NCBI GenBank assembly: GCA_020850615.1 | Contig: JADZEI010000066.1 | Location: forward strand, 1,943 to 65,942 | Length of the DNA stretch: 64,000 nt | Source of the DNA: Dehalococcoidia bacterium | GTDB lineage: Bacteria; Chloroflexota; Dehalococcoidia; Tepidiformales; Tepidiformaceae | Reading direction: 5' to 3' | Part shown: positions 16,487 to 63,925 of the stretch, one piece after another | Layout: each line of letters begins with the position of its first letter | How positions within the stretch are numbered: position 1 is the first letter of the stretch | Position numbers and translations under genes: made by a program | Notes under the pieces: generated by a model | Databases searched by the model: none | What the model saw: the letters and a program-made list of their open reading frames with translations, nothing else | Told to the model about the DNA's origin: nothing

Positions 16487-16506
16487 CCCAGTTCCCGGTT
16501 CCCAGA
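16487..16506. repeat. heptamer mini-array (GGGAACT type)
   Basis: ACCCAGTTCCCGGTTCCCAG. Confidence 0.5.
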
Positions 16507-16534
16507 GGCGTTCGCGGCGTGGTCGCTCGCGGGC

Positions 16535-16978
16535 TCAGTCCCCGGGTGTGCGCGCTCCCCGGGCGTGGGTGAGGTCCAGCTGGCAAAGCCGGCGTTCCAC
16601 CTCTGCCAGGGCATCGTTGCGGTCGAGCAGCGTCATCACATACTGGTTGAGACTGACGCCGTCTCTTCGCGCCGACGCGACCAGGCGGCGGTGAAGCGAC
16701 TTCGGAAGGCGCACGTTGAACCGGCCGCTGTAGGTTTCGGGTTGGGACGGCTCGGGGATCGAGGCGCCGCGCTCGTACTCCGTCTCGATCCAGAGCTGCC
16801 GGATCTCCGCGGCGGCCGTGCTGACCTCATCGAGCGCCTCGACCTGGGTCATGCAGCCCGGCAGATCCGGGAAGAGGATCACGTAGCCGCCTTCGGCATC
16901 GGCGATGACGTCGAACGAGTACTCCAGTCCGAGGTAGTGACCCAGGGGTCGCCGCATGAGGGCCGTTGCTTCACTCAT
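16535..16978 (-). CDS. hicB: HicB-family antitoxin (HicB fold + C-terminal ribbon-helix-helix)
   Basis: Start ATG 16978 overlaps the hicA stop (ATGAGTGA). YVILFPDLPGCMTQVEALDE (HicB N-domain) and SGRFNVRLPKSLHRRLVASARRDGVSLNQYV (RHH). Confidence 0.8.
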   Translation of the reverse strand: MSEATALMRRPLGHYLGLEYSFDVIADAEGGYVILFPDLPGCMTQVEALDEVSTAAAEIRQLWIETEYERGASIPEPSQPETYSGRFNVRLPKSLHRRLVASARRDGVSLNQYVMTLLDRNDALAEVERRLCQLDLTHARGARTPGD

Positions 16979-17246
16979 CTTCCGGATCCAATCCGAGCCG
17001 TTCGCACAGCTCATCGAGGTAGACACGCTTGACCTTGCTGCCGTCCTTCAACGGCATGACTATCGACCGCTCGCCGGCCTTGGTGAAGCTGATGTGGCTG
17101 CCCACCTGGCGGGCCTGGGCCCAGCCGAAGGCTTCCAGCACACGGCGAACGTCGCCGAAGTCGGCTTCCGAGGGCCGGGCAACGATGCGAGCGATGGACT
17201 TATCCAGCTTCGTCACCCGGCCACTCGGGATTTCAGTACCACACAC
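16971..17246 (-). CDS. hicA: HicA-family mRNA-interferase toxin
   Basis: GTG start at 17246, or alternatively GTG at 17216. FGDVRRVLEAFGWAQARQVGSHISFTK…KVKRVYLDELCERLGL matches the YcfA/HicA pattern including GSH. Confidence 0.75.
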   Translation of the reverse strand: MCGTEIPSGRVTKLDKSIARIVARPSEADFGDVRRVLEAFGWAQARQVGSHISFTKAGERSIVMPLKDGSKVKRVYLDELCERLGLDPEDE

Positions 17247-17267
17247 AGTACCACGTTGAGTCCCCTC

Positions 17268-17792
17268 CTACCACCGCTCCCGGTGGACGTACTCCTCGAG
17301 CGGGCGGCGGGGGCGGTTCGGGCGGACCGCGTCCGTGCCGGCGGGGTAGCCGAAGGCGATCGTGTTCGCGACGGTGTAGCCCTCGGGCAGGCCGAGCACC
17401 TTCGCCGCCTCGGCCGCGTGGTGCATCGAAGCGGGGCACGAGGCGATGCCCTCCGCCCAGGCCGCGATCATCATGTTCTGCGCGGCCCGGCCGGCATCGA
17501 ACGGCCCGCGGAAATGCGTCAGCGGCGCGCCGACCACGCCCATCTCCGGTTCGAGCACGAGCGCGACCACGACCGCGGCGGTGGGCAGGTGCGGTGTGAA
17601 CCCGCCACAGCGCGCGAGCGCCTCCTTCTGCGCCTGGCTTTCGATGACCACGAAGCGCACGGGTTCGAGCGCCTTCGCGCTGCCGGCCATCCGCCCGGCC
17701 TGGACGATGCGGTGGAGCGTCTCCTCGGGGATGGGCCGCGCTTCGAACGCGCGCGTGTCGCGCTTGCCGAGGATCGCTTCGTACGGGGTCAT
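17268..17792 (-). CDS. nitroreductase family protein
   Basis: 174-aa ORF. RDTRAFEARPIPEETLHRIVQAG… and AAQNMMIAAWAEGI are typical of the NADH oxidase/nitroreductase fold. Confidence 0.8.
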   Translation of the reverse strand: MTPYEAILGKRDTRAFEARPIPEETLHRIVQAGRMAGSAKALEPVRFVVIESQAQKEALARCGGFTPHLPTAAVVVALVLEPEMGVVGAPLTHFRGPFDAGRAAQNMMIAAWAEGIASCPASMHHAAEAAKVLGLPEGYTVANTIAFGYPAGTDAVRPNRPRRPLEEYVHRERW

Positions 17793-17793
17793 G

Positions 17794-18219
17794 TCAGCCC
17801 TCCGCCGGCATCAGCGCGTCGAGGAGCTCGCCCTTCGAGGTGCCGAGCGCGCTGAAGAACATCGGGCTCACCTCGCCCGATTCGATGATGCCCGCCGCGA
17901 GCAGCCGCGCGTCGATCCGCCTGCCGCCGGCCTGGCGCACGGCGTAGGCGGTGGCGTTGATCGCCTCGCGCGCGGCCGAACCGAACATCACCTGGGTCTC
18001 GAGCGGCTCGTCGCTGCCGCCCTGGGCCAGCATGAGCGCGCCTTCGAGCGCCTCCCGCGACGGGATGGCGGGATACCGGGCGGTGCCCAGCACCAAGAGC
18101 GCCCCCGCGAGCACATGCTCGGCGGCGACGATCGCCACGTTCGCGCGCCCGCAGAAGCGCTGTGCCTCCTGCAACGCCAGCGCGCCGTCTTCGGTCAGTG
18201 ACATCTCGTCTTCGGCCAT
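17794..18219 (-). CDS. Clp R (Clp_N) domain protein
   Basis: ATG 18219 inside ORF 17794..18543. Two Clp_N-like repeats (…EAQRFCGRANVAIVAAEHVLAGALL… / …AINATAYAVRQAGGRRIDARLLAAGII…). Its stop abuts the nitroreductase start. Confidence 0.6.
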   Translation of the reverse strand: MAEDEMSLTEDGALALQEAQRFCGRANVAIVAAEHVLAGALLVLGTARYPAIPSREALEGALMLAQGGSDEPLETQVMFGSAAREAINATAYAVRQAGGRRIDARLLAAGIIESGEVSPMFFSALGTSKGELLDALMPAEG

Positions 18220-18267
18220 GGCCGCCCAGTTTGCCCCGCCGGCCAGACCTCCGCCACCGGCGCCTTC

Positions 18268-18302
18268 AATCGGCAATCGAAAATCGGCAATCGGCAATTC
18301 GC
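18268..18302. repeat. tandem heptamer array (5 units, AATCGGC type)
   Basis: AATCGGC AATCGAA AATCGGC AATCGGC AATTCGC, between divergent genes and ~40 nt upstream of the ADH start. Confidence 0.8.
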
Positions 18303-18343
18303 CGGGTGTATACTCCCGCGGTTTCCGAAGGAGGGACAGGGAC

Positions 18344-19449
18344 ATGAAGATGCAGGCCGCCGTCTTCCACGGCGCACACCAGCCACTCACGGTCGAGACC
18401 ATCGACGTCGACGAGCCCGGCCCGAACGAGGTCCTCGTGCGGACCATGGCGAGCGGCGTCTGCCACAGCGACCTCCACTTCGTCGACGGGCTGTACGCGA
18501 TGCAGCCGCCCGCGATCCTCGGCCACGAAGCCGCGGGCATCATCGAGAAGGTGGGCAGCTCGGTCAGCTACGTGAAGCCCGGCGACCACGTCATCTGCTG
18601 CCTCTCCGTCTTCTGCGGCAAGTGTTCTGCGGCAAGTGCGAACGCTGCCTCAGCGGCGAACCGTTCCTCTGCCGCAGCCCCGAAGTGCGCCGCGGCCCGG
18701 AAGACCCGCCGAAGTACACCTGGAACGGCGACCCCGTCGCCCAGTTCGCGAACCTCTCGAGCTACGCCGAGTACATGCTCGTCCACGAAAACGCCGTCGT
18801 CCGCATCTCCGACAGCGTGCCGTTCGAAGTGGCCGCGCTGATCGGCTGCGGCGTCACCACCGGCGTCGGCGCCGCGCTCAACACCGCCCAGGTCACGCCC
18901 GGCTCCACGGTCGCGGTCTGGGGCGCGGGCGGCGTGGGGCTCGCCGCGATCCAGGGCGCCCGGATCGCCGGCGCGCGCATGGTCATCGCCGTCGATGTCG
19001 TCGAGTCGAAGCTCGGCAAGGCGCGGGAGCTCGGCGCGACCCACTCCGTCGATGCCAGCAGCGGCGACCCGGTGGCGAAGATCCGGGACATGACCGGCGG
19101 GCTCGGCGTGGACTTCGCGTTCGAATGCATCGGGCTCAAGGTCGCGGCCGAGCAGGGCTTCGAGGCGATCCGCGAAGGCGGCACCGTAACCGTCGTGGGG
19201 ATGATCCCGCAGGGTCAGAAGCTCGAGCTGGACGGGCCGTCGTTCCTGCGCGCGAAGAAGATCCAGGGCTGCACGATGGGCTCGAACCGCTTCCGCGTGC
19301 ACATGCCGCAATACGTCGAGCTCTACATGCAGGGCCGCCTCAAGCTCGACGAGATGGTCAGCCGCACCGGCCGCCTCGGCGACGTGAACGAAGCCTTCCG
19401 CGCGATGAAAGCCGGCGAAGTCGCGCGCACGGTCCTCAAGTTCGACTGA
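18344..19449 (+). pseudogene. Zn-dependent alcohol dehydrogenase (MDR family) disrupted by a 14-bp tandem duplication
   Basis: ATG 18344 after GAAGGAGGGA. GHEAAGIIEKVG, then reading frame lost at TTCTGCGGCAAGTG|TTCTGCGGCAAGTG (18611-18624 / 18625-18638). Removing one copy restores CLSVFCGKCERCLSGEPFLC (structural Zn site) in frame with ORF 18622..19449 (GAGGVGLAAIQGA Rossmann). Confidence 0.85.
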
Positions 19450-19776
19450 GGGGCCGCCGGCAGCGCGAGGCGAAGCCGTAGCCGCGGAGCAATGCTCCGC
19501 GGGATTTCCGTGCCATGCCGCGCGGCAGCGTGCGAGGCACCCTCACCGCAACCCGGCGACCCGGCGGCTGCGTCAGCGCGCGACACCGCCCCACCGGGTG
19601 TAGCCGGCGCCCCTTGTGGGCGCGAGCGTCAGCCCAACGGATGCACCACCGCCAGGCACTGCCCGAACCCGGTGACACCGTCGCCACGCCAGCGGCAGGC
19701 GGAATGTCGCGAGCTGCCGCGCGGCCTGATCCTGGGGGTCGCGGAGCCAATGCTCCGCGACTACGCCTGCGGCGCC
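19450..19776. repeat. intergenic REP cluster
   Basis: B forward 19478-19529, A2 forward 19600-19644, B reverse 19713-19776. The last one overlaps the 3' end of Uma2 copy 1. Confidence 0.85.
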
Positions 19777-20384
19777 ACCGCGCGGAGGTCGCCGCGGAGC
19801 ATCGCGGCGACGTCGAGCCGGAGGCCGGGGAAGACCTCGCTGGCGATGACGCCCTCGGCGTCGGGGCGGAGCGCTTCATAGATGCCGTCGCGGAGGCGGA
19901 ACCAGTCGATCACCTCGTCGAAGACGCGCCAGGCGATGTACTCCTGGACGCCGCTGCGCCGGTAGACGTTCTTCTTCACGTGGAGGTCGTAGGACACCGA
20001 GCTCGCCGCGATTTCGACCACCAGCTCCGGCGAGCCGGCGAGCATGCGGTCATCATCGACCGCGCTCAGGCGCGAATCGACCGCTCGCAGCGCGAGGTCC
20101 GGCCGCGGCTCGTTGTCCGCGTCCAGCCGCAGGGTCGTCTCGGGCAGGAGCTCCACCCGGTCGGGGTGGTGGCCCACATAGGCACCGAGCCAGACGCTCA
20201 TCCGGCCGTGGGGGATGGAGTGATCGACGCTGACAGGTGAGGCCACGTAGACGATGCCCTCCACGAGCTCGCATTTGCGCGGGTCGCCCTCGTAGCGCCG
20301 CTCGAACTCCGCGCGCGTCATCCGGTCGCCGCTTTGGAGCGGCGGCGTGCGTGGCAGGGCAAGGCTCTGTGGCTCCGCGACCAT
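19761..20384 (-). CDS. Uma2-family (DUF820) putative endonuclease, copy 1 of tandem pair
   Basis: 207-aa ORF. [12 protein letters not shown]…PDLAL…[32 protein letters not shown] has the PD-(D/E)xK-like Uma2 pattern. The last 5 codons plus stop lie in a REP element. Confidence 0.85.
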   Translation of the reverse strand: [207 protein letters not shown]

Positions 20385-20405
20385 GCCCCCAGTGTACCGG
20401 ATGGC

Positions 20406-21032
20406 CTACCCCGTGATGCGCGCGAGCACCGCGCGGAGGTCGCCGCGGAGCATCGCGGCGACGTCGAGCCGGAGGCCGGGGAAGACCTCGCTGGCGATGA
20501 CGCCCTCGGCGTCGGGGCGGAGCTCTTCGTAGACGCCGTCGCGGAGCCGGAACCAGTCGATCACCTCGTCGAAGACGCGCCAGGCGATGTACTCCTGGAC
20601 GCCGCTGCGCCGGTAGACGTTCTTCTTCACGTGGAGGTCGTACGACACGGAGCTCGCTGCGATTTCGACGACCAGCTCCGGCGGGCCGGACGGGATGCCA
20701 TCGATGCCGACGACGCTCGACCCGGTGATGCGCCGGAGGGCGATGTCGGGCTGCGGTTCGTTGTCGCCGTCGAGGCGGAAGGTCGTGTTGTCGGCGACTT
20801 CGACCACATCCCGGTGGAGGTCGGCGTACACGGCGAGCCAGGCGACCATCCGGGCATGCGGCGTGCCGTGGTTCAAACTGACAGGTGAGGCCACGTAGAC
20901 GATGCCCTCCACGAGCTCGCATTTGCGCGGGTCGCCCTCGTAGCGCCGCTCGAACTCCGCGCGCGTCATCCGGTCGCCGCTTTGCAGCGGCGGCGTGCGT
21001 GGCAGGGCAAGGCTCTGTGGCTCCGCGACCAT
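20406..21032 (-). CDS. Uma2-family (DUF820) putative endonuclease, copy 2 of tandem pair
   Basis: ATG 21032 inside ORF 20406..21098. The N-terminal ~45 codons and the C-terminal ~90 codons are nearly identical at nucleotide level to copy 1, while the central third has diverged. Confidence 0.85.
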   Translation of the reverse strand: [208 protein letters not shown]

Positions 21033-21039
21033 GTCCCCA

Positions 21040-21369
21040 GTGTACCGGATGGCGGAAGGCCGGGGACGCGATTCTGGCTGCCGCGCAGCGCCGGGCATCA
21101 GTGGCGCGACCGGCCGAGGGAGCGCTCTGCCGTACCCCTGGCACCACGCCCCGCGCCAGCGCGCGACACTCTCACCCCCGCGGCCGGGCCGTCGCTACGC
21201 TCCTGCCCTCGGCCGTCCGGCTGCCGCGGGGCATCCGTTGGGCTGACGCCAGCGCCCACGAGGGGCGCGGCTACGGCTTCGCCGCCGGCTACCGCGAGGC
21301 ATGATCCCTGGGGCCGCGGAGCCGATGCTCCGCGACTACGGCTTCGCCCACTGGACGCGCAGCCGCTCG
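21040..21369. repeat. intergenic REP cluster
   Basis: A2 long-form tail (CATCAGTGGCGCGACCGGCCGAGGGAGCGCTC, ~21095-21130). A1 reverse 21231-21274 with extension. B reverse 21288-21347. Confidence 0.8.
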
Positions 21370-22212: not shown

Positions 22213-22377
22213 GTCGCGCCTCCGAACCCGGTATGGGGCGGAGTATAGGCATGCCGGCGCTGTAGGCTCCCGCCCGGCGGAACCCGCGCGGCATAACCGG
22301 TAACGGCCCGGTCGGCTAAGGTGGATGTTCGACCCGACGGCAGCCAGCCGCCGGGATCTCCTCCAAGGACATCTCCC

Positions 22378-23766: not shown

Positions 23767-24201
23767 GGCCGGCGCCGCCGGAGGCGTAGTCGCGGAGCAC
23801 TGCTCCGCGGGATTGTCCGTGGCATGCCGCGCGGCAGCCCGCAACCATCGGATCGCGAACGCCGCACGTTGGCCCTCATCCCCCAACCCCTTCTCCCCTG
23901 CGGGGGAGAAGGGGAGCTCACGCGCTGACGCGGGGCACGGTGTCAGGGGTGCGTTGCCGGATGGATTGGACAATCGGTGCACCCCTCTCCCGCCGCAGCG
24001 GGAGAGGGGACGGGGGTGAGGGCTCGCGCGCTCCCCCGGACGCCCCTCGCCGGGGCGGGCCGCCACCTGCGATGCGACATCCGTCCGGCTTAGACGCGCC
24101 GCCGAGGCTGGGCTCGGCGGACTACCGCTGCGCGGCCCGAGGGGGCGAAGCCTCGCCCCCTCGCCGCGGACGTGCACTCTACGCCTCTACGCCTTCGCTC
24201 C
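23767..24201. repeat. intergenic REP cluster
   Basis: B forward 23786-23839. C hairpin 23872-23918 and inverted C hairpin 23982-24022. A3 reverse 24076-24125. Octamer module 24175-24201 abuts the nitroreductase stop. Confidence 0.85.
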
Positions 24202-27653: not shown

Positions 27654-28251
27654 GGGTTGCCGTCCTTGTGCGAACTGGGGCGCCGAAAACGCGGCCCCGG
27701 CGCGATTTTACGGCGGCGGATGGCTGCCGGCTTTCGGCTGTCGGCCGTCGGCTCTCGGCTCTCGGCTGTCGGCTGCTGCCTATCGGCTCTTGGGTGTCGG
27801 CCCGGCGACCGCACCAGCGCGGAGCGCGGGCCCTCACCCCCGTCCCCTCTCCCGTGCGCGGGAGAGGGGCGCCCCCGGATGCGGGACGCCCCGCAGCGAG
27901 GTGTAGCCGGTGCCCCTTGTGGGCACGAGCGCCAGCCCAACGGATGTGGCACCGAAGGCACCGTCCCACCCCGGCGCGCGCGGCGCCATCAGTGGCGCGA
28001 CCGGCCGAGGGAGCGCTCCCGCGCCCTCGGCGACCACGCCCCGGCGCCGCCCCGAAACCCCGCGCCCAGAGCTGACAGCCGATAGCCGACAGCTGACAGC
28101 CAAACGCCAACAGCCGAGCGCCATTCGGCGACGGCCGAACGGCCCAACGATTCCGGTACATCCGGCCTTGGCCCGCCGTGGCGGGCGGTGGCACCTTCCG
28201 GCACCATAGGGGTCTCCGTGGACCCATACATTCATCAATAGGCAGGGATAG
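27654..28251. repeat. composite element with inverted heptamer-array arms
   Basis: Heptamer array 27722-27801 (GGCTGTC type, ~11 units). C hairpin 27830-27870. A2 forward 27903-27946 (stem variant GTGCCC/GGGCAC), long form to ~28060. Inverted heptamer array 28071-28122 (GACAGCC type, ~7 units). Confidence 0.85.
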
Positions 28252-29822: not shown

Positions 29823-30165
29823 GTGCGGGCGACAGCGCCGCAGGCGTAGCCGCGCCCCTCGTGGGCGCTGGCGTCAGCCAAACGGATGCCTCGCGGTAGC
29901 CCACAACCGAGGGCGGGAGCCCCGCGACCGCCCGGCCGCAGGGGCGTGGGGCGTCGCGGACGGTGTCGCGGGCTGCGCGCGGCGGCGGTGCAGCGTCTCG
30001 GCCGAGCGCTCCCTATTGGTCGCGCCACCGATGGCGCCGCGCGCTCCGCGGTGTCCCCATCGCCGGGGTGCACGTCCCGGGGCGTGGCGCGGTCGCGGGC
30101 TACCGCGCGGCATGATCCTGGGGGCCGCGGAGCCGATGCTCCGCGACTACGCCTGCGGCGCTGTG
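29823..30165. repeat. intergenic REP cluster
   Basis: A1 forward 29846-29889 with extension to ~29935. A2-tail-like segment ~29995-30045. B reverse 30092-30161. Confidence 0.8.
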
Positions 30166-33010: not shown

Positions 33011-33121
33011 GGCTGAGTCTCCGTTGTGGGAATGGGCCCGCGGGGAAAACGCGGGCGCGGCGGGGGGAATGCTACGCGGCCGGGGGGCGGTTGTCGCCCC
33101 GCCCCCTCCCCGCGTCCCCCC

Positions 33122-33267
33122 GTTCCCAGTTCCCAGTTCCAGGAGGCGAGCGCACGGTGTGGCGCCCAGGCCGCTGCCGTCTCGCTCGCAGCTGGCCGCC
33201 CTGGCTCACCCGACACCCGGGGCGGGCGATTGTGGTTGCGACGCCTCTGGGAACTGGGAACTGGGAA
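33122..33267. repeat. inverted heptamer arms (GTTCCCA x3 / TGGGAAC x3) around a ~105-nt core
   Basis: GTTCCCAGTTCCCAGTTCCAG at 33122-33142 and CTGGGAACTGGGAACTGGGAA at 33247-33267. Confidence 0.8.
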
Positions 33268-33344
33268 CCCGCGCGCACGGCGCGCGCAGCGCGCTCCGCG
33301 CTACAATGGGCGTCCAGGCTCCGCGCGCCGGGGCCGCCCCCTCT

Positions 33345-34601
33345 ATGTACAACACGCACACCCTGTCCAACGGCCTCCGCATCGTCACCGCCGAACTCCC
33401 GCACACGCGCTCCGCCACTGTCAGCGTCTACGTTGGCGCCGGCAGCCGCTACGAACGCGACGAAGAGGCCGGTCTCTCCCACTTCCTCGAACACATGCTC
33501 TTCAAGGGCGCCTCCCGCCGGCCCACCGCCCGCGAGATCGCCGAGGCGATCGAGGGCGTCGGCGGGTCGCACAACGCCGCCACCGACCGCGAGGTGACGG
33601 TCTACTACGCGAAGGTGCCGGACAGCGCCGCCTACGAGACGATCGACATCCTCGCCGACATGGTGCGGGACCCGGTGATGGACGCGGCCGAGCTCGAGAA
33701 GGAGCGCTACGTCATCCTCGAAGAGCTCGCCGGCATCGAAGACAACCCCGCCGAGATGGCGGGCATCCTCATCGACGAGACGATCTGGCCCACCCAGCCG
33801 CTCGGCCGCAACGTCGGCGGCACGCCCGAAAGCGTGAAGGCGCTGCCGCTGAGCGCGGTGAACCGCTACCTCAAGGCGCAGTACGTGCCCGAGAACATGG
33901 TCCTCGTGGTCGCGGGGAACATCGAGACGGCGCGTGTGGTCGATACGGCCGCGCGCTACCTCGGCGACATGCCGGCGGCGCGGCCGGGCGCCTGGTACCC
34001 GGTCGAAGAGCGGCCCGGTGCGGCCCGCATCGCCGTCCGCGAAAAGGCGACCGAGCAGGCCCACCTCTGCATCGCCTACCCGTCGGTCGCGCTGGACCAC
34101 CCGGACCGGTACGCGGTGGACCTGCTGAGCACGGTGCTCGGCGAGGGCATGTCGAGCCGGCTCTTCCTGGAGCTGCGCGAAGAGCGCGCCCTCGTGTACG
34201 ACGTGCACACCTACCCGACCGAGTACCGCGATGCGGGCGTCTTCACCGTCTACGCCGGCTGCGACCCCGAGAACACGCGCGTCACCGGCGAGCTCATCTT
34301 CGAAGAGACGGCGAAGCTGCTGGAGCACCTGCCGGAGGAGGAGCTCGCCAAGGGGAAGATGATGGCCCGCGGCCGCATCCAGCTGCGGATGGAGGACACC
34401 CGCTCCGTGGCCGGCTGGATCGGCTCGCAGCAGCTCCTCCTCGACGAGATCCTGACGGTCGACGAGGCGGTCGCGCGGATCGAAGCGGTGACGATGGACG
34501 ACGTCCTCCGCGTCGGCCGCGAGCTGCTGCGCCCGCAGCGCGCCTCGATCGCCGCGGTCGGCCCGTTCGAAGACGACGCGCTCTTCGCGGGGCTGCTGTA
34601 G
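33345..34601 (+). CDS. M16-family (pitrilysin/insulinase-like) zinc peptidase
   Basis: ATG 33345 (alternative 33306) in ORF 32910..34601. TLSNGLRIVT, and the inverted zinc motif HFLEH followed by MLFKG. Confidence 0.9.
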   Translation: MYNTHTLSNGLRIVTAELPHTRSATVSVYVGAGSRYERDEEAGLSHFLEHMLFKGASRRPTAREIAEAIEGVGGSHNAATDREVTVYYAKVPDSAAYETIDILADMVRDPVMDAAELEKERYVILEELAGIEDNPAEMAGILIDETIWPTQPLGRNVGGTPESVKALPLSAVNRYLKAQYVPENMVLVVAGNIETARVVDTAARYLGDMPAARPGAWYPVEERPGAARIAVREKATEQAHLCIAYPSVALDHPDRYAVDLLSTVLGEGMSSRLFLELREERALVYDVHTYPTEYRDAGVFTVYAGCDPENTRVTGELIFEETAKLLEHLPEEELAKGKMMARGRIQLRMEDTRSVAGWIGSQQLLLDEILTVDEAVARIEAVTMDDVLRVGRELLRPQRASIAAVGPFEDDALFAGLL

Positions 34602-35040
34602 GGCGACGGCCGCGGCCGTGTCTCGCCGTGGCAATTCACGATTCACGCGGGTTCGAGACGGTGTGGAGCGCTGGCGCGGCGCCGGGGCGAAGCCGTAGTC
34701 GCGGAGCATCGGCTCCGCGGCCCCCAGGATCATGTCCCGCGGTAGCCCGCGACGCGCGTGCGCGTGGTGCGCGGCGCCCTCACCCCGACCCTCTCCCGCT
34801 GCGGCGGGAGAGGGAGTTCGCGCTCCCCACACGCGTCGGTACCGCGTCAGCGGGGGGCGAAGCCGTAGTCGCGGAGCATCGGCTCCGCGGCCCCCAGGAT
34901 CATGTCCCACGGTAGCCCGCGACGCGCGTGCGCGTGGTGCGCGGCGCACGCCTCGGAGCCGCGACGACCGTGAGGACGCAGGCGAACGCACCCCGGCTGC
35001 ACGGGATTCGCGGCGGATGCCAACTCAACGCCTTCACACC
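34602..35040. repeat. intergenic REP cluster with 170-bp tandem
   Basis: Heptamers AATTCAC GATTCAC 34633-34647. B forward 34695-34752. C hairpin 34777-34816. B forward 34865-34922, i.e. the same unit repeated at a 170-bp period. Confidence 0.85.
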
Positions 35041-35066: not shown

Positions 35067-35675
35067 ATGACGCAATTGAGCGAGCCACCGGCCACCGGCG
35101 CGCGCCGGGTGACCTACGAGGAGTTCCTCTGCGGCGACTTCCCCGCCCATAGCGAGTGGGTGGACGGCGAGGTTGTTCCCATGGTGGGTGTTAGTGGGCT
35201 TCACAACGAGATGGGAGCATTCCTGATCGAGCTGCTCCGGGGCTTTCTCCAGGCGACGAACATCGGTCGCCTCAGGTACGAACCCTTCCAGATGAAACCT
35301 GCCCCCGACCAGCCCGGCCGCTCGCCCGACCTGATGGTCATCCTCAACGAGCACCTGCACCGCCTGCACGACCTCTACCTCGAGGGCGCGGCTGACGTCG
35401 TGGTAGAAATCGTCTCGCCCGGCACGGAGGCGGTGGACCGCGGCACGAAGTTCTACGAGTACGAGGCGGGTGGCGTGCCCGAGTACTGGCTCATCGACCC
35501 CCACCGCGAGACGGCGGAGTTCTTCGTCCGGGACGACGCGGGGCACTACCGTCCCACGACCCTGGAGGGCACGGTCTTCCGCAGCACCGTGCTGCCCGGG
35601 TTCTGGCTCCGGACGGAGTGGCTCTGGCAGCGCCCGGCGACGGCGGGGCTGCTCGGTGGTGATGCCAGCGCCTGA
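35067..35675 (+). CDS. Uma2-family (DUF820) putative endonuclease, third copy
   Basis: 202-aa ORF. EWVDGEVVPM…PDLMVIL…ADVVVEIVSPGTEAVDRGTKFYEYEAGGVPEYWLIDP. Confidence 0.85.
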   Translation: MTQLSEPPATGARRVTYEEFLCGDFPAHSEWVDGEVVPMVGVSGLHNEMGAFLIELLRGFLQATNIGRLRYEPFQMKPAPDQPGRSPDLMVILNEHLHRLHDLYLEGAADVVVEIVSPGTEAVDRGTKFYEYEAGGVPEYWLIDPHRETAEFFVRDDAGHYRPTTLEGTVFRSTVLPGFWLRTEWLWQRPATAGLLGGDASA

Positions 35676-36000
35676 GGGCGGGCGAATTCACGGTCCACGA
35701 TTCACGATTCAAGCAGGTTTGAGACGGTGTGGAGCGCTGGCGCGGGGCCCTCACCCGGGCCCTCTCCCGCTGCGGCGGGCGAGGGAGCTCGCGCCTCCCG
35801 CACTCGTCGGTGCCGCATCAGCGCGGGGCGAAGCCGTAGTCGCGGAGCATCGGCTCCGCGGCCCCGAGGACCATGTCTCGCGGTAGCCCTCGACCGGCGC
35901 GGTCGTGCCGGGTTGGGGCGACCTTCGATGCCGCATCCGTTGGGCTTAGACGCACCGCCGAGGCTGGGCTCGGCGGACTACCGCTGCGCGGCCGGGCGCG
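35676..36000. repeat. intergenic REP cluster
   Basis: Heptamers 35685-35712 (ATTCACG type, 4 units), followed as at 34648 by GGTTTGAGACGGTGTGGAGCGCTGGCGCGG. C hairpin 35749-35787. B forward 35836-35893. A3 reverse 35933-35981. Confidence 0.85.
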
Positions 36001-40515: not shown

Positions 40516-41240
40516 CGCAGCCGGCGCGCGGAACGGCGCCGCAGGCGTAGCCGCGGAGCATTGCTCCGCGGGATTGTCCGAGCCATGCCGCGCGGCAGCC
40601 GGGAGTAACGTAGCCGCGCCCCTTGTGGGCGCTGGTGTCAGCCCAACGGATGCCCCGCGGCAGCCGTGCGCCCGAGGGCGGGAGCGCAGCGACCGGCCGG
40701 CCGCCTGGGGAGGCACCCTCATTCCCCGACCCCTTCTCCCCCTGCGGCGGGAGAAGGGGAGCTGCGCAGTGACGGGTCGTGGTGCCCTGGGTGCGGCGGA
40801 GCGCTCCCCCGGCCGGTCGCGCCACTGATGCGCGCTCCGCGGGCGCCGCGTGACCGGGATGGGGCGGTGCCTGGCGGTGTGGCATCCGTTGGGCTTAGAC
40901 GCTCGCGCCCACAAGGGGCGCCGGCTACACGCGGTTGGGGCGGCGTCGCGCGCTGACGCGGGGCGTGGTGCCAGGGGTGCCGGCGGAGCGCTCCCTCGGC
41001 CGGTCGCGCCACTGATGCGCGCTCCGCTGGCGCCGCGTGACCGGGTTGGGGCGGTGCCTGGCGGTGGGGCATCCGTTGGGCTTAGACGCTCGCGCCCACA
41101 AGGGGCGCCGGATACACCCGGTTGGGGACGGCGTCGCGCGCTGACGCGGGGCGGGGTGCCAGGGGTGGGGCGGAGCCCTCCCTCGGCAGGTCGCGCCACT
41201 GATTGCGCCGCGCCCGCCATGGCGGGCTGCGCTAGCATGG
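40516..41240. repeat. intergenic REP cluster with ~190-bp tandem array
   Basis: B forward 40535-40600. A1 forward 40610-40653 plus extension. C hairpin 40726-40761. A2 long form in reverse orientation repeated about 2.3 times at ~40775-41215 (cores 40882-40928 and 41069-41115). Confidence 0.85.
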
Positions 41241-41673: not shown

Positions 41674-42072
41674 CGCACCGCAGGCGTATCCGCGGAGCAT
41701 TGCTCCGCGGGACTGTCCGTGCCATGCCGCGCGGTAGCTGGAGGCGAAGCCGTAGCCGCGCCCCTCGTGGGCGCTGGCGCCAGCCCAACGGACGCACCGC
41801 GGCAGCCCGTGACCCGAGGGCGGGAGCGGAGCGACCGGCCGGACCGGGTGGTGCGGCAATCCACGGAGCAGAATCGCGCGCTGCCGCGGCGGCGGTGTGG
41901 TTCGGGGTGGGGCGGTGCCTGGCGGTGGGGCATCCGTTGGGCTTAGACGCTCGCGCCCGCAAGGGGCGCCGGCTACATCCCGGTGCCGGCGTTGCGGCGT
42001 TCCCGGGGGCCGGGTGTGCCGCGGGAGCCGGGCACCAACAGCCAACAGCTAAGAGCCAACCGCCCGCGCCGC
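41674..42072. repeat. intergenic REP cluster
   Basis: B forward 41686-41738 (head GTAT). A1 forward 41752-41795 plus extension. A2 reverse 41930-41976. Heptamers 42034-42062 (AGCCAAC type). Confidence 0.85.
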
Positions 42073-44411: not shown

Positions 44412-44438
44412 GGATTTCGATTCTCGCTTTTCGATTCC
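44412..44438. repeat. heptamer mini-array (GATTTTC type, degenerate)
   Basis: GATTTC GATTCTC GCTTTTC GATTCC, directly after the crotonase stop. Confidence 0.6.
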
Positions 44439-44604
44439 GCTGAGGTGGACGGGTCGCCTGCGATGCCCCGACGCGGGCCGCCAGCCCGGGCGTGGGACGG
44501 TGGCCGTTGCTTCGATGGTCGTGGGCTACTGCTGGGCGACGGGTGCCAGGGGCACGCTCGCCCGCTTCCTCACGGGCGCGGCTCCGCTTTGTGGGGCCGG
44601 ACAC

Positions 44605-46980: not shown

Positions 46981-47828
46981 GTGTCCGTGGGGGTGGGTTG
47001 GTAGCGCGTGGGAACGGTGTTGTGTCTCGAATGGGAATGCGGATCCCGCGTGGGGAGCGGCGGGCGTCCCGGGCGGGAAGACGCGCGTGTCCCGGGTGGG
47101 AGTTTGTGTGGTGGCGCGCGGGCGTGGGGAGGTGGGGGCGAAAGCGTTCCGAGCGAGCCGGGCGGGCGCTCCGCTGCCGCCCTCGCAGCCCCCGACGCTG
47201 GTGGCCTATCGGTGTCGCATCCGTGGGCTTCCGCTCAGGGCCCACGAGGGGCCCGGGCTACGGCGCGGCGGCGCGCCGTTGGCGTGGGCGGGGCGGGAGT
47301 GGGGCAGCGGAAGCGAAAGGCGTTCCAGGCGAGCCGGGCGGGCGCTCCGCTGCCGCCCTCGCAGCCCCCGACGCTGGTGGCCTGTCGGTGTGGCATCCGT
47401 GGGCTTCCGCTCAGGGCCCACCAGGGGCCCGGGCTACGGCGCCGGGGCGCGCCGCCGGCGTGGGCGCGGCGGGAGTCGAGCGCGGCAAAGGGGCGGGCGG
47501 CGCCGTTCGGGTTTGAGGGTGGTGTCCCGGCCGGGAAGGGGTGTGCGTCCATGGTTGGGAGAGGTTCCCCTCTCCCTCTGGGAGAGGTTCCCCTCTCCCT
47601 CTGGGAGAGGGGTTAGGGGTGAGGGTGCGGTGCTCTGGGTGGCGTGTTGGCCCTCACCCCAGCCCTCTCCCAAAGAGAGAGGGAGCCCGGCCTCGTTGTT
47701 GCGGCGAACGGGCGTCCGGACCCCCATGTTGAGGGCAGTGTGAGCGGCGTTACGTCGACCGGGGCGCGAGGGGAACGGCACGGGGCCGGGTGACGTTGGA
47801 ACGGTGGAACCGTCCCCGGGAGGCTACT
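46981..47828. repeat. 0.85-kb non-coding repeat mosaic
   Basis: ~176-bp tandem (47141-47266 / 47316-47442), each unit carrying an A-type REP variant with a GGGCCC/GGGCCC stem (47217-47261, 47393-47437). 23-bp tandem hairpin GGGAGAGGTTCCCCTCTCCCTCT x2 at ~47566-47611. C hairpins up to ~47690. Confidence 0.8.
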
Positions 47829-53457: not shown

Positions 53458-53756
53458 AAGGCGTAAAGGGGTGGAGGCGTAAAGGCGCCCACCCCCCGCC
53501 GCCGTAGCCCCCGGATTTTCGATTTTCGATTTTCGATTTTCGCCAGCACGGACGGGGTCGGCTGCGATGGCGCCGGAGACGGACGCGCACGCCGTCGAGC
53601 ATGGAGACGAGCGGTGGTTCGCATCAGCTCCGGGGCAGGCGACCATGTCGCTCTCACCGGAAATCGAAAATCGCAAATCAGGAGGGGCGGGGCTCGGCGG
53701 GGAGGGGCCCCACTCTACGCCTCTACGCCTTTACGCCTCACGCCTTCCCCGACACC
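53458..53756. repeat. ~300-bp nested imperfect palindrome (octamer arms outside, heptamer arms inside)
   Basis: Octamers 53458-53487. Heptamers GATTTTC x4-5 at 53513-53543. ~115-nt core. Inverted heptamers GAAAATC type at 53659-53680. Inverted octamers 53710-53756. Confidence 0.8.
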
Positions 53757-57624: not shown

Positions 57625-57863
57625 GCTCGTTGCCTCCTCGTACCGGTTCGCCCTGTCCACCAACCTTGCGCCAACGGGCAGGGTTTGACAACCGATGACC
57701 TGGCGCACCCGATGCCCCCCACGCCTCCTGACACGGCGCTGGCAGGAGCGTAGGTTCACCCCGCGGGGCTCCTGACAGTATGGTGTCACCACGGGGATGG
57801 GAACATGGCCGCGCCGCGGCAAGAGGTGTCGCGGACATTCCCCCAACAGCGAGGACGACCACC

Positions 57864-58265: not shown

Positions 58266-58416
58266 CCCGCATGGAGGCCACCATGCCCGCATCCGAACCC
58301 GTCTGGGCGGTCCGCCTGCCACCCGCCGAACCGTGCGAGCGCGCGGCGCCGGAGCCCGCGCCCGCGCCCCCACCGGGCCGGCCGGCGCCGCCGCCCTGGC
58401 CCCCGCGGGACCGGCG

Positions 58417-59103: not shown

Positions 59104-59150
59104 CGCCACCCGGTGCCCCAAAGCACGATCCGTGCAAGAACCGGCGGAGC

Positions 59151-59885
59151 GTAGCCGCGCCCCTCGTGGGCGCTGGCGCCAGCCAAACGGATGCCGCCGC
59201 GTCAGCCAGCGCCGCCCCCACCGGCGTGTACACACGCGTCGCACAGACACGTACCATGCTCAACGTGCATTACCGGAGACCCATCCGGCTGCCCCCAGAG
59301 GTCTACGGCAACCCGGCGAACGTCTTTCACGTCGTCATCCGTGCGTTCCCCGGCCAATCGCCGTTCGAGCGGCCCGAGGTTGCTGGTGCCACCTGGGGAC
59401 TGCTGGACGAAGAGGCACGTCGCGATAGTGTGGTAATGGCGGCGGCGTGCCTGATGCCGGACCATCTGCACCTGCTGCTTCGTCCCAATCGAGGCAGCCT
59501 CGTCAGCTGGGTTGGCGCGTTCAAATCGGTTTCGACGCGCCGGGTATGGCAGACCGGCTATCGCGGCCGGCTCTGGCAACCCTCCTTCTGGGACCGTTGC
59601 CTCCGCGAGAACGAGTTCGACACGGCGAGGGCATACATCATCAACAACCCGGTTTCGGCGGGGCTGGTCGACGAGCCCGGTGACTGGCCCTGGACTGCGT
59701 GGTGGGATGACCCGGCGGATTGAGCGCGGCAGGCCCCGCCCGGGTGTGACCGTCACCGTGCCGTCCCGGGGGGTCACCGCCCTCGCTGAGCGAGCCGGGC
59801 GGTCGCGGAGCTCCCGGCCCTCGATCGAAGGCTGCCGCGGGGCATGGGTTGGGCTGACGCCAGCGCCCACGAGGGGCGCGGCTAC
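59151..59885 (+). mobile_element. REPtron: RAYT gene bracketed by inverted GTAG-hairpin REP copies
   Basis: REP class A1 forward at 59151-59194 (GTAGCCGCGCCCCTCGTGGGCGCTGGCGCCAGCCAAACGGATGC) and its reverse complement at 59842-59885, with GTAG/CTAC on the outside. Confidence 0.75.
59256..59723 (+). CDS. REP-associated tyrosine transposase (RAYT; IS200/IS605-like Y1 HUH enzyme)
   Basis: ATG 59256 in ORF 58965..59723. HUH motif in MPDHLHLLL. The catalytic-Tyr block ARAYIINNPVSAGLVDEPGDWPW matches the RAYT signature Y-x3-NPV-x-AGLV…WPW. The gene is flanked by inverted REP copies. Confidence 0.85.
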   Translation: MLNVHYRRPIRLPPEVYGNPANVFHVVIRAFPGQSPFERPEVAGATWGLLDEEARRDSVVMAAACLMPDHLHLLLRPNRGSLVSWVGAFKSVSTRRVWQTGYRGRLWQPSFWDRCLRENEFDTARAYIINNPVSAGLVDEPGDWPWTAWWDDPAD

Positions 59886-59984
59886 GCTCCGCCTGGTGGG
59901 GCGCGAGTGCCCCGCTCGCGGCGCGCCACCCTCAGGCGGGCGGGCCGGCGGGCGGATGGGCGCGGGGTCTCGTACACTCCGGGG

Positions 59985-61418: not shown

Positions 61419-61783
61419 GCCGGCCAGCGGAAGCGGACGACGGCGGCACCACGGTCGTGGCCATCGCGCGCGACGCTGTCGAGGCGGCGATCTGGACGGA
61501 CGCGCTGCGCGATGCCGGGATCGAGGCGGCGGCCTTCGAACGCGGGCCGGGCGCGGCGCTCGGCGGGGCGGCGCCGCCATGGTCGTCCTATCCCGTGGTC
61601 GTGCCGGCGGGGCGGCTCGCGGCCGCGCGCAACGTGATCGCGGAGCTCGCCGGCGGCGCCGTGCTCGCGCCCTACCGCGACATCGCCGAGGAACGGGCCC
61701 GGCGGGCGCGCGTGCTCTGGGTGGCCGGCGGGGCCGCGGCGGTGGTGCTCGGCTTCCTCGTCGTGGCGCTGCTGGTGGGCTGA
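61415..61783 (+). CDS. DUF2007-like small protein with C-terminal TM anchor
   Basis: ATG overlaps the pyk stop (ATGA). VVAIARDAVEAAIWTDALRDAGIEA… and a C-terminal VLWVAGGAAAVVLGFLVVALLVG. Confidence 0.55.
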   Translation: MSRPAEADDGGTTVVAIARDAVEAAIWTDALRDAGIEAAAFERGPGAALGGAAPPWSSYPVVVPAGRLAAARNVIAELAGGAVLAPYRDIAEERARRARVLWVAGGAAAVVLGFLVVALLVG

Positions 61784-61867
61784 GTTTGCCGCCACGCTAC
61801 CTTCTGATAACCGCGCGGTAACTTTTTCGCGGACTGATGCGTTTCTCCTGTTTGGGAACCCGCGGTA

Positions 61868-61896
61868 TTGACCGAACCGGGCTCCTCGACGATAAC
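61868..61896 (+). promoter_or_regulatory. candidate sigma-70-type promoter TTGACC-N17-GATAAC
   Basis: Lies in the locally AT-richer 250-nt gap upstream of the surface-protein gene (ATG 62032). 5/6 match at -35, 4/6 at -10, 17-nt spacer. Confidence 0.35.
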
Positions 61897-62031
61897 CAAA
61901 CTCGCACGCGAGCGTCCCGCCCGGGAAGTCGAGAGCCCGGCGGAACCAGGTGTTCGTGGTGCGTCCCGGCAGCGGCGCCCGGCGGGGTGCGCCCAACGGG
62001 TCCCTTATGGAGGGGCGTGTTGGCGGCACCT

Positions 62032-63702
62032 ATGGCGAATCTACCCTTCCGGCTCGCGCGTGGAGCCGGCATTTTGTTCCTTGCGGGCGCGTTGCTCGCC
62101 GGGGGCATCCCCCGGGCGGCATCCGTGCCGCGCGTCCAGGCAGCTGGTTGCCCCGTGGTCAGCGGCTTCGTCTACCACGACGTGAACAACAACGGCCTGC
62201 GCGATGAGGGCGAACCCCCGATCGCGGGCAGCTCGATCGAGCTCCGCACGCCCGCGGGCGCCGTGGTCGGCCGCGCGACGACGGACGCGAACGGCTACTA
62301 CCAGTTCCTCACGGACGAATCCGCGAACGCGCCGCTCCAGACGCAGACGCACTCCGTCACGTTCCCGACCGAGACGACGGACTGGACGGCGACGAAGGAG
62401 CTCCCGCAGTTCGACCCCGGCCTGGGCACGCTCAAGTCGCTCACGATCACGAACAGCGGCAGCATCACCAGCGCGATCAAGGCCGAAAGCCTCGACAGCG
62501 TCGCCTCCACCGTCTCCGCGACGGTGAGCGGCACGCTGACCGTGACCGCGCCCGGCGACCGCGACATCGCGACGGTCCCGACGGTGAACGCGGGTTCGTT
62601 CGAAGCCGCCGCCTACGACGGCGTGGCCGACTTCGAAGGCGACAGCGGGCACGACTTCGGCTCGCACACGGCCTCGGACTCGAACACCGTGACCCTGACG
62701 GACCCTGCCTCGCTCGCGCCCTACGTGGGCACCGGCGCGGCGACGTTCACGGCGAGCGTGATCGCGAGCTCTCGCACCAGCGGCAGCGGCAACGTGCTCA
62801 ACCAGATCAACACGACGGCGGGCGCCCAGCTCATGGTCGTCTACCAGTACCAGCCGCTCGTCTGCCTCACGCCCGGGCGCTACAACATCGTCCAGACGGT
62901 GCAGCCGCCGACCTACACCGACGGCCGCGAGACCGCGGGCAACGTCTCGCCGATCCCCGGCAGCGACCGCAGCGACACCATCCCGGTGGACCTTTCGACG
63001 GGCGACAAGCCGAACAACAACTTCGGCGAGCTGCGCGCCAGCCTCTCGGGCTACGTCTACGTCGACGATGACAACGACGGCAACCGCGACCAGGGCGAGG
63101 CGCCCATCCCGGGCGTTTCTATCCGCCTGACCGGCACGGATTCGAGCGGCGCCACGATCGACAAGACGGCGACGACGGACGGCAGCGGCTTCTACGCGTT
63201 CCGCAGCCTCCTCGCCGGCGACTACGTCATCGACGAGACGCAGCCGGCGGCCTACATCGACGGCAAGGACACGATCGGCTCGCAGGGCGGCAAGACGTCG
63301 AACGATCGGCACTACGACATCGACCTGCCCGCGGGCGTCGACGGCGTGAACAACAACTTCGGCGAGCGCTATGCCCCCACGCCGACGCCGACCGGCACCA
63401 GCACGCCCCCGAGCGGGACGCCGGGCACGGGCACGGCGACGGGAACGCCCCCGGGCGGCGGCACCGGCACCCCTCCGGGTGGCGGCACCGGCACCCCGGG
63501 CGGCACGACCAACCCGAACACGGGGGGCAACACACCCGGCGGCACGGTCGCCGGCGCGCGCACGCCGGGCGTGCCAGGCGCGGGTTCCGGCCTCTTCGAG
63601 ACGGCGAAGAGCCCGAGCGTGATCGTGGTCGGGCTCGTCATCTTCGCGGCATCCGGGTGGCTGGCGTTCCTGGCCCTGAACCGGAAGCGGCCTGAGGCGT
63701 AG
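62032..63702 (+). CDS. cell-surface protein with two SdrD B-like (Cna-B type) domains and C-terminal membrane anchor
   Basis: ATG 62032 in ORF 61837..63702. Signal peptide. SGFVYHDVNNNGLRDEGEPPIAGSSIEL…DANGYYQF and SGYVYVDDDNDGNRDQGEAPIPGVSIRL…DGSGFYAF (SdrD B-like). Pro/Gly/Thr linker and a TM + RKRPEA tail. Confidence 0.8.
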   Translation: MANLPFRLARGAGILFLAGALLAGGIPRAASVPRVQAAGCPVVSGFVYHDVNNNGLRDEGEPPIAGSSIELRTPAGAVVGRATTDANGYYQFLTDESANAPLQTQTHSVTFPTETTDWTATKELPQFDPGLGTLKSLTITNSGSITSAIKAESLDSVASTVSATVSGTLTVTAPGDRDIATVPTVNAGSFEAAAYDGVADFEGDSGHDFGSHTASDSNTVTLTDPASLAPYVGTGAATFTASVIASSRTSGSGNVLNQINTTAGAQLMVVYQYQPLVCLTPGRYNIVQTVQPPTYTDGRETAGNVSPIPGSDRSDTIPVDLSTGDKPNNNFGELRASLSGYVYVDDDNDGNRDQGEAPIPGVSIRLTGTDSSGATIDKTATTDGSGFYAFRSLLAGDYVIDETQPAAYIDGKDTIGSQGGKTSNDRHYDIDLPAGVDGVNNNFGERYAPTPTPTGTSTPPSGTPGTGTATGTPPGGGTGTPPGGGTGTPGGTTNPNTGGNTPGGTVAGARTPGVPGAGSGLFETAKSPSVIVVGLVIFAASGWLAFLALNRKRPEA

Positions 63703-63784
63703 GGCCGGGCAGCGGCGGGCGGGGTCAACCCCGTTGCAGCGGGCCCCCAGGTCACCCGGCCCGCCGCCCCGGCCCCACGGGACA

Positions 63785-63925
63785 ATTGCCGATTGTCGAT
63801 TGTCGATTGCCCCGGCCATCCAGGGGCGAAGCCGTAGCCGCGCCCCTCGTGGGCGCTCGCGCCAGCCCAACCCATGCCCCGCGGCAGCCATCGCCCGAGG
63901 GCAGGAGCGCAGCGACGGCCCGGCC
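63785..63925. repeat. heptamer array + A1 REP after the surface-protein gene
   Basis: GATTGTC-type heptamers 63785-63811. A1 forward 63834-63877 with the usual 3' extension to ~63925. Confidence 0.8.

Follow-up and report, generated by a model that had tools for sequence, protein, structure and literature searches.

The window analyzed here, a 64-kb stretch of contig JADZEI010000066.1 with about 15.7 kb of non-coding and 48 kb of coding DNA, contains intergenic arrays of tandem heptanucleotides that are real and lie far above chance. The arrays are not free-standing and form the gene-proximal edge of intergenic modules resembling repetitive extragenic palindromic (REP) sequences and miniature inverted-repeat transposable elements (MITEs). 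We tentatively favor the explanation that the arrays are born by slippage and are carried or spread by these structured modules, with a role that would be structural and not gene-specific. A first-pass annotation, made from the letters of the window alone, had reported at least 13 such arrays in intergenic DNA, and we found heptamer units at 13/13 of them; the segments holding all arrays lack the codon-position GC signal, confirming their intergenic position.

Period-7 arrays in the window

The arrays had been described as having a strict 7-nt period, and this held for most of them, as Tandem Repeats Finder (TRF) assigned period 7 to 11/13. The array at 44415-44441 was called as period 14 with 7% indels because one of its units has 6 nt, and the strict period therefore fails there. 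The array of two units at 34633-34647 is below the TRF threshold and was missed. The 13 arrays, with their TRF period-7 calls and neighboring genes, are as follows.

16487-16506, minus strand: about 2.9 units, GGGAAC(T/C) on the minus strand; TRF 16487-16505; 29 nt past the stop of a HicB-like gene and 130 nt ahead of the start of a BBE oxidase gene
18268-18302, minus strand: 5 units of the GATTNNC family, AATCGGC/AATCGAA on the plus strand; TRF 18267-18298; within a 124-nt divergent intergenic region, 49 nt from a minus-strand gene start and 42 nt from the start codon of a Zn-dependent alcohol dehydrogenase (Zn-ADH) gene
27722-27801, plus strand: 11.4 units GGCTNTC, left arm of an inverted pair; TRF 27722-27801 (11.4 copies); adjoins the start of a minus-strand Zn-ADH gene (27653)
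28071-28122, minus strand: about 7 units, GGCTGTC on the minus strand, right arm of the inverted pair; TRF 28070-28117; 130 nt ahead of the start of an FMO-like gene
33122-33142, minus strand: 3 units, GTTCCCA on the plus strand, left arm of an inverted pair; TRF 33118-33140
33247-33267, plus strand: 3 perfect units CTGGGAA, right arm of the inverted pair; TRF 33247-33268 (100% match); 78 nt ahead of the M16 start codon (33345)
34633-34647, plus strand: 2 units (A/G)ATTCAC at the head of a D1 module; 32 nt past the M16 stop codon
35685-35712, plus strand: 4 units GATTCAC, heading the second D1 module; TRF 35686-35711; 10 nt past a Uma2 gene stop codon and in direct orientation relative to 34633
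42034-42062, minus strand: about 4 units, CCAACAG on the plus strand, which is GGCTGTT on the minus strand; TRF 42035-42064; 10 nt beyond the stop of a minus-strand open reading frame (ORF) (42073)
44412-44438, plus strand: irregular GATTYYC, about 3.7 units, one of 6 nt; 6 nt past the stop codon of an enoyl-CoA hydratase gene, with the inner motif GGTCGCCTGC after it
53513-53543, plus strand: 4 perfect units GATTTTC, left arm of an inverted pair in a divergent intergenic region; TRF 53514-53542 (4.1 copies, 100%)
53659-53680, minus strand: 3 units, GATTTNC on the minus strand, right arm of the pair; TRF 53661-53679
63785-63811, plus strand: 3.7 units GATTG(T/C)C; TRF 63785-63809; 83 nt past the stop codon of an SdrD-like gene and 22 nt ahead of a GTAG-headed REP-like module

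The distance of the arrays to gene starts or stops in the window is 6-130 nt. The HicB-family antitoxin-like gene beside the first array (16535-17026) has no obvious HicA partner called alongside.

In a uniform lag-scan of the window, 7 strong arrays had period 7, where 60 Markov-3 simulations averaged 0.32 and never exceeded 2; for period 8 there were 4 arrays, compared with 0.2 simulated. The other periods from 4 to 14 gave at most 2 arrays each, at or near chance. With a lenient threshold, the 15.7 kb of intergenic DNA contained 15 period-7 arrays against 1.4 expected, 7 period-8 arrays against 1.15 expected, and 0-1 arrays for periods 5, 6, 9 and 10 against about 1-1.4 expected. The 48 kb of coding DNA had 1 period-7 array, 25 arrays of period 6 and 6 of period 9. 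The first-pass annotation had named two outcomes that would undo its observation, namely heptamers no more frequent than other periods and a single duplicated segment, and neither was found within the window. In the intergenic DNA period 7 exceeds periods 5, 6, 9 and 10, and the arrays are not one duplicated segment, because at least four unit families are represented and 10 separate intergenic regions across 47 kb are occupied.

The weakest arrays (16487, 34633 and 53659) cannot be told from chance individually, but they are supported because their unit family and flanking module are common to stronger arrays. Chance or assembly artefact as a general explanation retains hardly any probability: the arrays of 2-3 units are individually near the chance level, but the simulations and the intergenic counts refute it for the set, independent metagenome contigs reproduce arrays 18268, 27722 and 28071 exactly, and the unit families are common to relatives. 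The arrays qualify as heptanucleotide long simple sequence repeats (LSSR 5-11), as a unit of 5-11 nt is iterated beyond chance for the sequence, the units in non-coding DNA are not multiples of three, and heptamers are dominant there. CRISPR (clustered regularly interspaced short palindromic repeats) was ruled out, as the units are contiguous and of 7 nt, instead of repeats of 23-50 nt with unique spacers. An Rfam scan of the whole window gave zero matches.

Modules, inverted arms and a sister octamer family

Every unit family in the window has its own inner flank. The motif GGTCGSCTGC occurs in three copies, and 3/3 are located 13-14 nt inside a GATTTYC array, while both GATTCAC arrays (34633 and 35685) head copies of the D1 repeat on either side of a Uma2 gene. 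The inner flanks and D1 modules are located as follows.

44452-44461, plus strand: inner-flank motif GGTCGSCTGC, 13-14 nt inside the GATTTYC array
53556-53565, plus strand: inner-flank motif GGTCGGCTGC, beside array 53513
53635-53644, minus strand: inner-flank motif GGTCGCCTGC, beside array 53659
34599-34936, plus strand: two D1 modules in tandem, 168 nt each, the first starting with GATTCAC units
35740-35907, plus strand: D1 module with 87% identity to the reference copy, directly inside array 35685

The arrays also have a fixed polarity in the window: read from the gene boundary inward, 6/6 unambiguous GATT-type arrays read GATTNNC and 3/3 GGCTGTY arrays read GGCTGTY. Three inverted pairs lie between divergent genes, and their arms are 75-100% complementary. 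The arms are 75% complementary in 27722/28071 and 86% in 53513/53659, and in 33122/33247, which sits between divergent acyl-CoA dehydrogenase and M16 peptidase genes, 19 bp pair and the complementarity runs further inward past the arrays. Compared with shuffled sequence, folding gave minimum free energy z-scores of -4.1 for 53513/53659 and -5.6 for 33122/33247, and in such predicted folds the inverted arms can close a structured insert of 100-270 nt.

An association with REP modules and gene ends, which the first-pass annotation had raised, was borne out, as the arrays lie at the gene-facing edges of REP-like modules. The arrays themselves are tandem repeats and not GTAG-headed palindromes of 20-40 nt, and are thus not REP sequences or REP doublets forming hairpins (REPINs); the GTAG-headed hairpin modules are beside them. 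Inverted array arms flank structured cores, but no target-site duplication or multi-copy full element, as expected of a MITE, could be defined.

Several families of GTAG-headed, hairpin-forming REP-like modules fill the intergenic DNA in both orientations and are often chained into blocks of 0.5-1.3 kb. Examples are listed below.

155-228, 3508-3581 and 19578-19651: REP-like modules
27881-27954, 29823-29896 and 40587-40660: REP-like modules
41729-41802, 59128-59201 and 63833-63924: REP-like modules

Large non-coding stretches made of REP-like modules also hold long-period tandem repeats at 7903-8085 (84 nt, 2.2 copies), 40773-41208 (187 nt, 2.3 copies), 47113-47476 (176 nt, 2.1 copies) and 47556-47610 (23 nt, 2.4 copies). 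The window has three Uma2 genes (PF05685, putative restriction endonuclease), at 19761-20384, 20406-21098 and 35109-35675. The first two form a tandem pair with 83-92% identical DNA, and the third has GATTCAC arrays in direct orientation and D1 modules on both sides. A hidden Markov model built from the three window copies found zero Uma2 genes in 200 comparison loci.

In parallel with the heptamers, octamer arrays (GGCGTARA)n, which read CTNTACGC on the other strand, occur at eight sites. Both this family and the membership of the arrays in larger modules had been missed by the first-pass annotation. The octamer arrays have a common inner flank, GGCGGACGCCCACTCTACGCC, with the conserved form GTGG(G)CGTCCGCCGCG, and every one of them faces a gene boundary with the same polarity. 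They provide the stop codon of the upstream gene at two sites, and the GGCGTARA strand contains stop codons in all three frames.

4876-4906, plus strand: (GGCGTARA)n, abuts a gene boundary
7141-7191, plus strand: ABC-2 gene stop codon in the first unit; inner flank GTGGGCGTCCGCCGCG
12493-12508, minus strand: 2 units, ACGCCTTT on the plus strand
24177-24194, minus strand: CTCTACGC on the plus strand; 6 nt from the nitroreductase gene stop codon
31745-31778, minus strand: 4.2 units; abuts the acyl-CoA dehydrogenase gene stop codon
43457-43489, plus strand: hydrolase gene stop codon TGA in the first unit
53458-53487, plus strand: outside the left heptamer arm, beside a minus-strand gene start (53448)
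53713-53745, minus strand: outside the right heptamer arm, mirror image of the 53458 array

At the first of these sites, the Sua5/TsaC gene (4797-4920) lacks a canonical in-frame start codon in the stretch that separates its conserved N-terminus from the octamer array, and the only upstream GTG (4920) would put the array into translation. We also considered a promoter reading, in which the octamers would serve as -35/-10 elements and the heptamers would be UP-like, and rejected it, as gene 3′ ends and the intervals between convergent genes have arrays just as often.

Host, relatives and other phyla

By its sequence affinities the host is a Tepidiformales-like member of the Chloroflexota from wastewater, in agreement with the first-pass annotation, which had placed it outside the cyanobacteria and had spoken of Actinomycetota or Chloroflexota-like genomes. 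This assignment is made because the window Obg (418 aa, on a 157-kb contig) shares 72-75% identity with proteins named Tepidiformaceae, Tepidiforma, Dehalococcoidia or Chloroflexota, the best named matches of the M16 peptidase give the same taxonomic picture, near-identical DNA was found in wastewater and activated-sludge metagenomes, and the Tepidiformaceae include the wastewater genera Candidatus Amarobacter and Candidatus Amarobacillus. The window has 69-73% GC and ordinary chromosomal genes. Exact-protein look-ups of the window Obg and FMO-like proteins, with start codons of our choice, returned no record.

The presence of the arrays is lineage-specific. A relative represented by two assemblies, L203 and L204 (Obg 76% identical), has GGCYGTC, GGGAACN and CCAACAG arrays at non-orthologous loci, and no arrays were found in about 20 kb each of a closer relative (Obg 84% identical) and of cultured Tepidiforma. 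As synteny around Obg and M16 is not conserved in relatives, a single orthologous site could be compared, upstream of M16, and it had no arrays in three relatives with about 80% identical M16. L203 (12945-14218) and L204 (12945-13062) differ by a segment of 1,156 bp with two small ORFs without Pfam match. This indel is flanked by direct 118-bp modules ending in a GGGAAC heptamer array, which suggests a module-mediated insertion or deletion.

Between close strains the arrays are stable, as far as array 18268 is concerned, the only one spanned by diverged strains in a comparison of short, low-depth contigs: its sequence and copy number are unchanged in the identical strain X3 and in the 2.7%-diverged X5 and X20. 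Read depth spikes over this array, and similar arrays must therefore be common elsewhere in those communities. A 14-nt gap in the contig spanning 18268 was considered as a change of array length and rejected, as it lies at 18611 and reflects a coding duplication instead. There, a perfect 14-nt tandem duplication, TTCTGCGGCAAGTG in two copies at 18611-18638, hits the Cys-rich zinc motif and frameshifts the Zn-ADH gene starting at 18344, and strain X5 lacks one copy, with the frame restored. The duplication may be either a recent slippage-type mutation or pseudogene, or else a sequence error.

A database-wide scan of 596 Gb for (GATTNNC)3GATT found at least 120 loci, against about 4 chance matches by our own estimate from 19 specified bases. 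Among the matches listed were Acidobacteriota (many Pyrinomonadaceae), Bacteroidota, Verrucomicrobiota, Planctomycetota and Chloroflexota, as well as Cyanobacteria, Gemmatimonadota, Nitrospirota, Desulfobacterota, Armatimonadota and lineages of the candidate phyla radiation, with few classical Proteobacteria, Actinomycetota or Firmicutes. In 835 kb of these listed GATTNNC loci there were 267 period-7 arrays against at most 25 for any other period, and together with the window they yielded 148 GATTNNC arrays and 126 arrays of other units. IMG/VR contigs bearing GATTNNC (L211-L328, 1.04 Mb) gave 322 period-7 arrays against at most 53 for other periods, and in both sets the GATTNNC arrays are usually accompanied by other heptamer families. 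Two weak arrays turned up in an unseeded control, which comprised 882 kb of diverse environmental contigs. The FMO-like protein had been considered as a route to syntenic relatives and was rejected for this, because it is about 75% conserved across very diverse bacteria; its 80 loci served only as unseeded control.

The 121 intergenic GATTNNC arrays among the matches listed are unbiased with respect to gene direction (co-directional 26 and 27, convergent 36, divergent 32). They are polar by our gene calls, with the 5′ side nearer a gene boundary in 82 and the 3′ side in 39 (p = 1e-4), and the median distances to the boundary, 59 nt on the 5′ side and 129 nt on the 3′ side, imply extra non-coding partner DNA on the 3′ side. 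Arrays after a same-sense gene start at most 15 nt past the stop codon in 25/62 cases, compared with 9/63 in the opposite orientation. Adjacent pairs of the same family were inverted in 22/31 cases, many with loops of 7-60 nt, and close inverted GATTNNC pairs form stems of 24-37 bp. The arms mirror each other, as the median complementarity is 0.89-0.90 for true pairs and 0.79 for arms of different pairs, with 8/30 perfect. A literature search for GATTNNC-type units found no description in the searchable literature.

Known heptamer repeats and the origin of the arrays

The first-pass annotation had doubted that such repeats were a described feature of GC-rich non-cyanobacterial genomes, and here it overstated their novelty, as heptamers are on record from Burkholderia, Xanthomonas, Actinobacteria and Chloroflexus. 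The arrays belong to a known kind of repeat without settled origin or function. As summarized in PMC4679880 and PMC4692102, Mrazek et al. (2007) found heptanucleotides to be the most abundant class of long SSRs, with the richest genomes including Burkholderia, Xanthomonas, three Actinobacteria and cyanobacteria, and proposed polymerase slippage as their origin; the summary in PMC4679880 adds that long SSRs of 5-11 nt are typical of non-pathogens. As these accounts present the LSSR 5-11 of Mrazek, Guo and Shah, the likeness is close, as those repeats are statistically long, commonest as heptamers and intergenic, and occur in the large genomes of free-living organisms, some of them high in GC, but the accounts describe no polarity, module association or GATTNNC core across phyla.

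Xanthomonas is a further high-GC non-cyanobacterial host with hundreds of intergenic arrays, mostly of about 4 units, where Rehm et al. (2015) described 186 GGGAATC arrays, inverted pairs included (PMC4692102). These repeats and the GGGGA(C/T)T repeats of Nostoc share with ours a conserved core and degenerate positions. The Xanthomonas arrays differ between species yet hold their positions, most of them between the same genes in two species (PMC4692102), unlike the one orthologous site compared here, where relatives have no arrays. The G-quadruplex proposed for GGGNATC (Rehm 2015) needs at least four consecutive G3 tracts with short loops, and the GGGAACT arrays of the window have at most 3 units; the dominant window family, GATTNNC, is not G-rich, unlike GGGAATC and GGGGA(C/T)T. 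In the same phylum as our host, Subirana and Messeguer (2019) reported 22 scattered (GATAGRA)n heptamer satellites in Chloroflexus aurantiacus, judged "probably transposed" (PMC6749651). These are likewise heptamer-derived and scattered over the genome, but they form a single different unit family in a genome of 57% GC and were described as 14-nt satellites. MacGregor (2015) described TAACTGA arrays in Beggiatoaceae, Cyanobacteria and Bacteroidetes, for which binding of Csp, S1 or CsrA was proposed (PMC4679880). Like ours, they are intergenic, have 2-6 units, occur in distant phyla and are mixed with other heptamers, but most of them sit in sense orientation a few nt ahead of a start codon, whereas our arrays have no bias in transcription direction.

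The likeness to the short tandemly repeated repetitive (STRR) sequences of cyanobacteria, drawn by the first-pass annotation, holds for the class and not for the units. STRR1 (CCCCAGT), STRR2 (TTGGTCA) and STRR3 (CAACAGT) of Calothrix, Nostoc and Anabaena are tandem heptamers, dispersed and intergenic, with several families per genome, just as the window has its families dispersed over 10 intergenic regions; unlike them, our arrays are short (2-11 units), tied to REP-like modules and found in a Chloroflexota host of 70% GC. The STRR units are absent from the window, with one-mismatch relatives only, TCCCAGT for STRR1 and CAACAGC for STRR3, and among the 126 non-GATT arrays the one-mismatch matches to STRR1-3 were 4, 3 and 5 against 1.6, 2.6 and 2.7 expected. 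Similarity to STRR1-3, TAACTGA or GGGAATC was set aside as not clearly above chance. REP, bacterial interspersed mosaic element (BIME) and REPIN sequences are comparable as dense, dispersed, structured intergenic palindromes, with GTAG-headed hairpins beside several window arrays, but they are not short-period tandem arrays, and the RAYT gene was not found among the approximately 40 window proteins scanned.

Under the explanation we favor, strand slippage would add or remove units in a 7-nt register (8 nt for the octamers) beside structure-forming modules, and the arrays would spread through duplication, mobilization or recombination of those modules. Their effect would be structural, as a hairpin or cruciform, as insulation or stabilization of adjacent transcripts, or as a recombination substrate, and would involve no gene-specific regulation or phase variation. 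Slippage, one of the mechanisms suggested by the first-pass annotation, is the most plausible origin, whereas templated addition, also on its list, is without support. Several points weigh against the slippage and module explanation. Slippage alone leaves unexplained the preference for 7 nt, the recurrence of a CGATT core in many phyla and the restriction of variation to 1-2 unit positions. No copy-number polymorphism was observed in the one assessable array (18268, at low depth), neither a RAYT nor another transposase gene was present among the scanned window proteins, and no flanking motif of GATTNNC arrays common across phyla was found. In addition, the multi-phylum set was itself selected by the GATTNNC pattern, the polarity statistics derive from home-made gene calls with the arrays masked, and metatranscriptome contigs (X4, X15, X17) contained only coding-region fragments of relatives and are uninformative over the arrays.

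These unexplained features keep alive an unlikely but serious alternative, suggested by analogy, in which the arrays would be bound by a protein polymerizing on 7-bp units, as the ribbon-helix-helix protein omega does, or by a nucleoid-associated protein, and would modulate promoters or local DNA organization. Omega and MetJ bind tandem 7- and 8-bp units, matching the 7- and 8-nt periods found here. The operators of omega (pSM19035) and the met-boxes of MetJ resemble our arrays by analogy only, as contiguous 7- or 8-bp units, direct or inverted, with a conserved core and degenerate edges. The window units combine a conserved core with 1-2 degenerate positions (GATT-NN-C, GGCT-N-TC) in both direct and inverted arrangements, and some arrays lie in promoter-sized divergent regions, such as the 124-nt region of 18268. 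About 35 nt separate the end of array 33247 from a downstream TACAAT box, which relatives have too, and the stable copy number between strains would suit a binding site. A Nostoc preprint points the same way, as heptamer repeats affected recF and recO reporters and repeat deletion altered reporter expression. However, those are plasmid operators, with a single cognate protein and a single type of unit, while here there are many families at many chromosomal loci, so that coexisting unrelated families would require several proteins. Arrays are as common between convergent as between divergent genes, orthologous promoters in relatives lack them, no candidate binder was identified, and the flanking genes are functionally unrelated. 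The window units also differ from the omega heptad WATCACW, and the only nearby antitoxin-type gene (HicB, 16535-17026) has its array past the stop. A broader version, that GATTNNC-core arrays are one coherent bacteria-wide element, made or used by a conserved heptad-binding protein or by a mobile or recombination system with a 7-bp register, seems improbable to us; it is raised because the arrays combine a multi-phylum and viral-contig spread with fixed polarity, mirrored inverted arms and lineage-specific partner sequence.

Also improbable is action at the RNA level, where arrays in 5′ or 3′ untranslated regions would bind a single-strand binder of about 7 nt (cold-shock protein, S1) or form stems, and would control translation, mRNA stability or termination. 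The excess of GATTNNC arrays just past same-sense stop codons among the matches listed, the position of window arrays 44412, 35685 and 34633 at 6-32 nt past stop codons, the strong predicted stems of inverted arms, and the proposal made for TAACTGA repeats would all suit this model. Transcription orientation is otherwise unbiased (26 vs 27), though, the stems have no U-runs after them, metatranscriptome contigs say nothing on coverage over the arrays, and DNA-level module geometry accounts equally well for the polarity. The arrays could also have been left as footprints by a mobile element or a recombinase that cuts with a constant stagger of 7 bp (or 8 bp). Each insertion-excision cycle would then duplicate a preferred target once and so add one unit, with templated addition as a variant. 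The 7- or 8-nt period, the target-like consensus of core and N positions, the direct arrays 34633 and 35685 around the Uma2 cassette and those around the 1.16-kb L203/L204 indel, and the occurrence in IMG/VR contigs speak for such footprints. Excision that leaves footprints is unusual in bacteria. We give this model poor prospects, as the L203 indel is bordered by 118-bp homologous modules and not by single units, paired arrays are mostly inverted and not direct, and the scanned window proteins include no nearby transposase or reverse transcriptase. Phase-variable contingency loci, where a hypermutable copy number would switch neighboring genes, are very improbable: a 7-nt unit could shift the reading frame or alter the spacing within a promoter, and there is overlap of some arrays with promoter regions, but the arrays lie outside ORFs, next to housekeeping or metabolic genes instead of surface or virulence genes. 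Array 18268 also keeps its length in strains 2.7% apart, and the host is free-living, in line with the summarized link of 5-11-nt long SSRs to non-pathogens.

Heptamer arrays have been known since 1990, when STRR sequences were described, and according to the summaries of the 2007 work they are the commonest class of long SSR in many prokaryotes. What is new here is a case in the Tepidiformales (Chloroflexota) and four regularities that any mechanism must explain. Only periods 7 and 8 are in excess; the arrays have a fixed polarity and occupy the edge at which structured, dispersed modules face a gene; the arms of inverted pairs are mirror images even at their variable positions; and a single core, CGATT, turns up in many phyla, while typical genomes have next to no arrays. 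Should there be a factor that binds or makes heptads, it could be sought by means of these regularities, and if there is no such factor, the arrays would be ordinary slippage products riding on REP-like elements.

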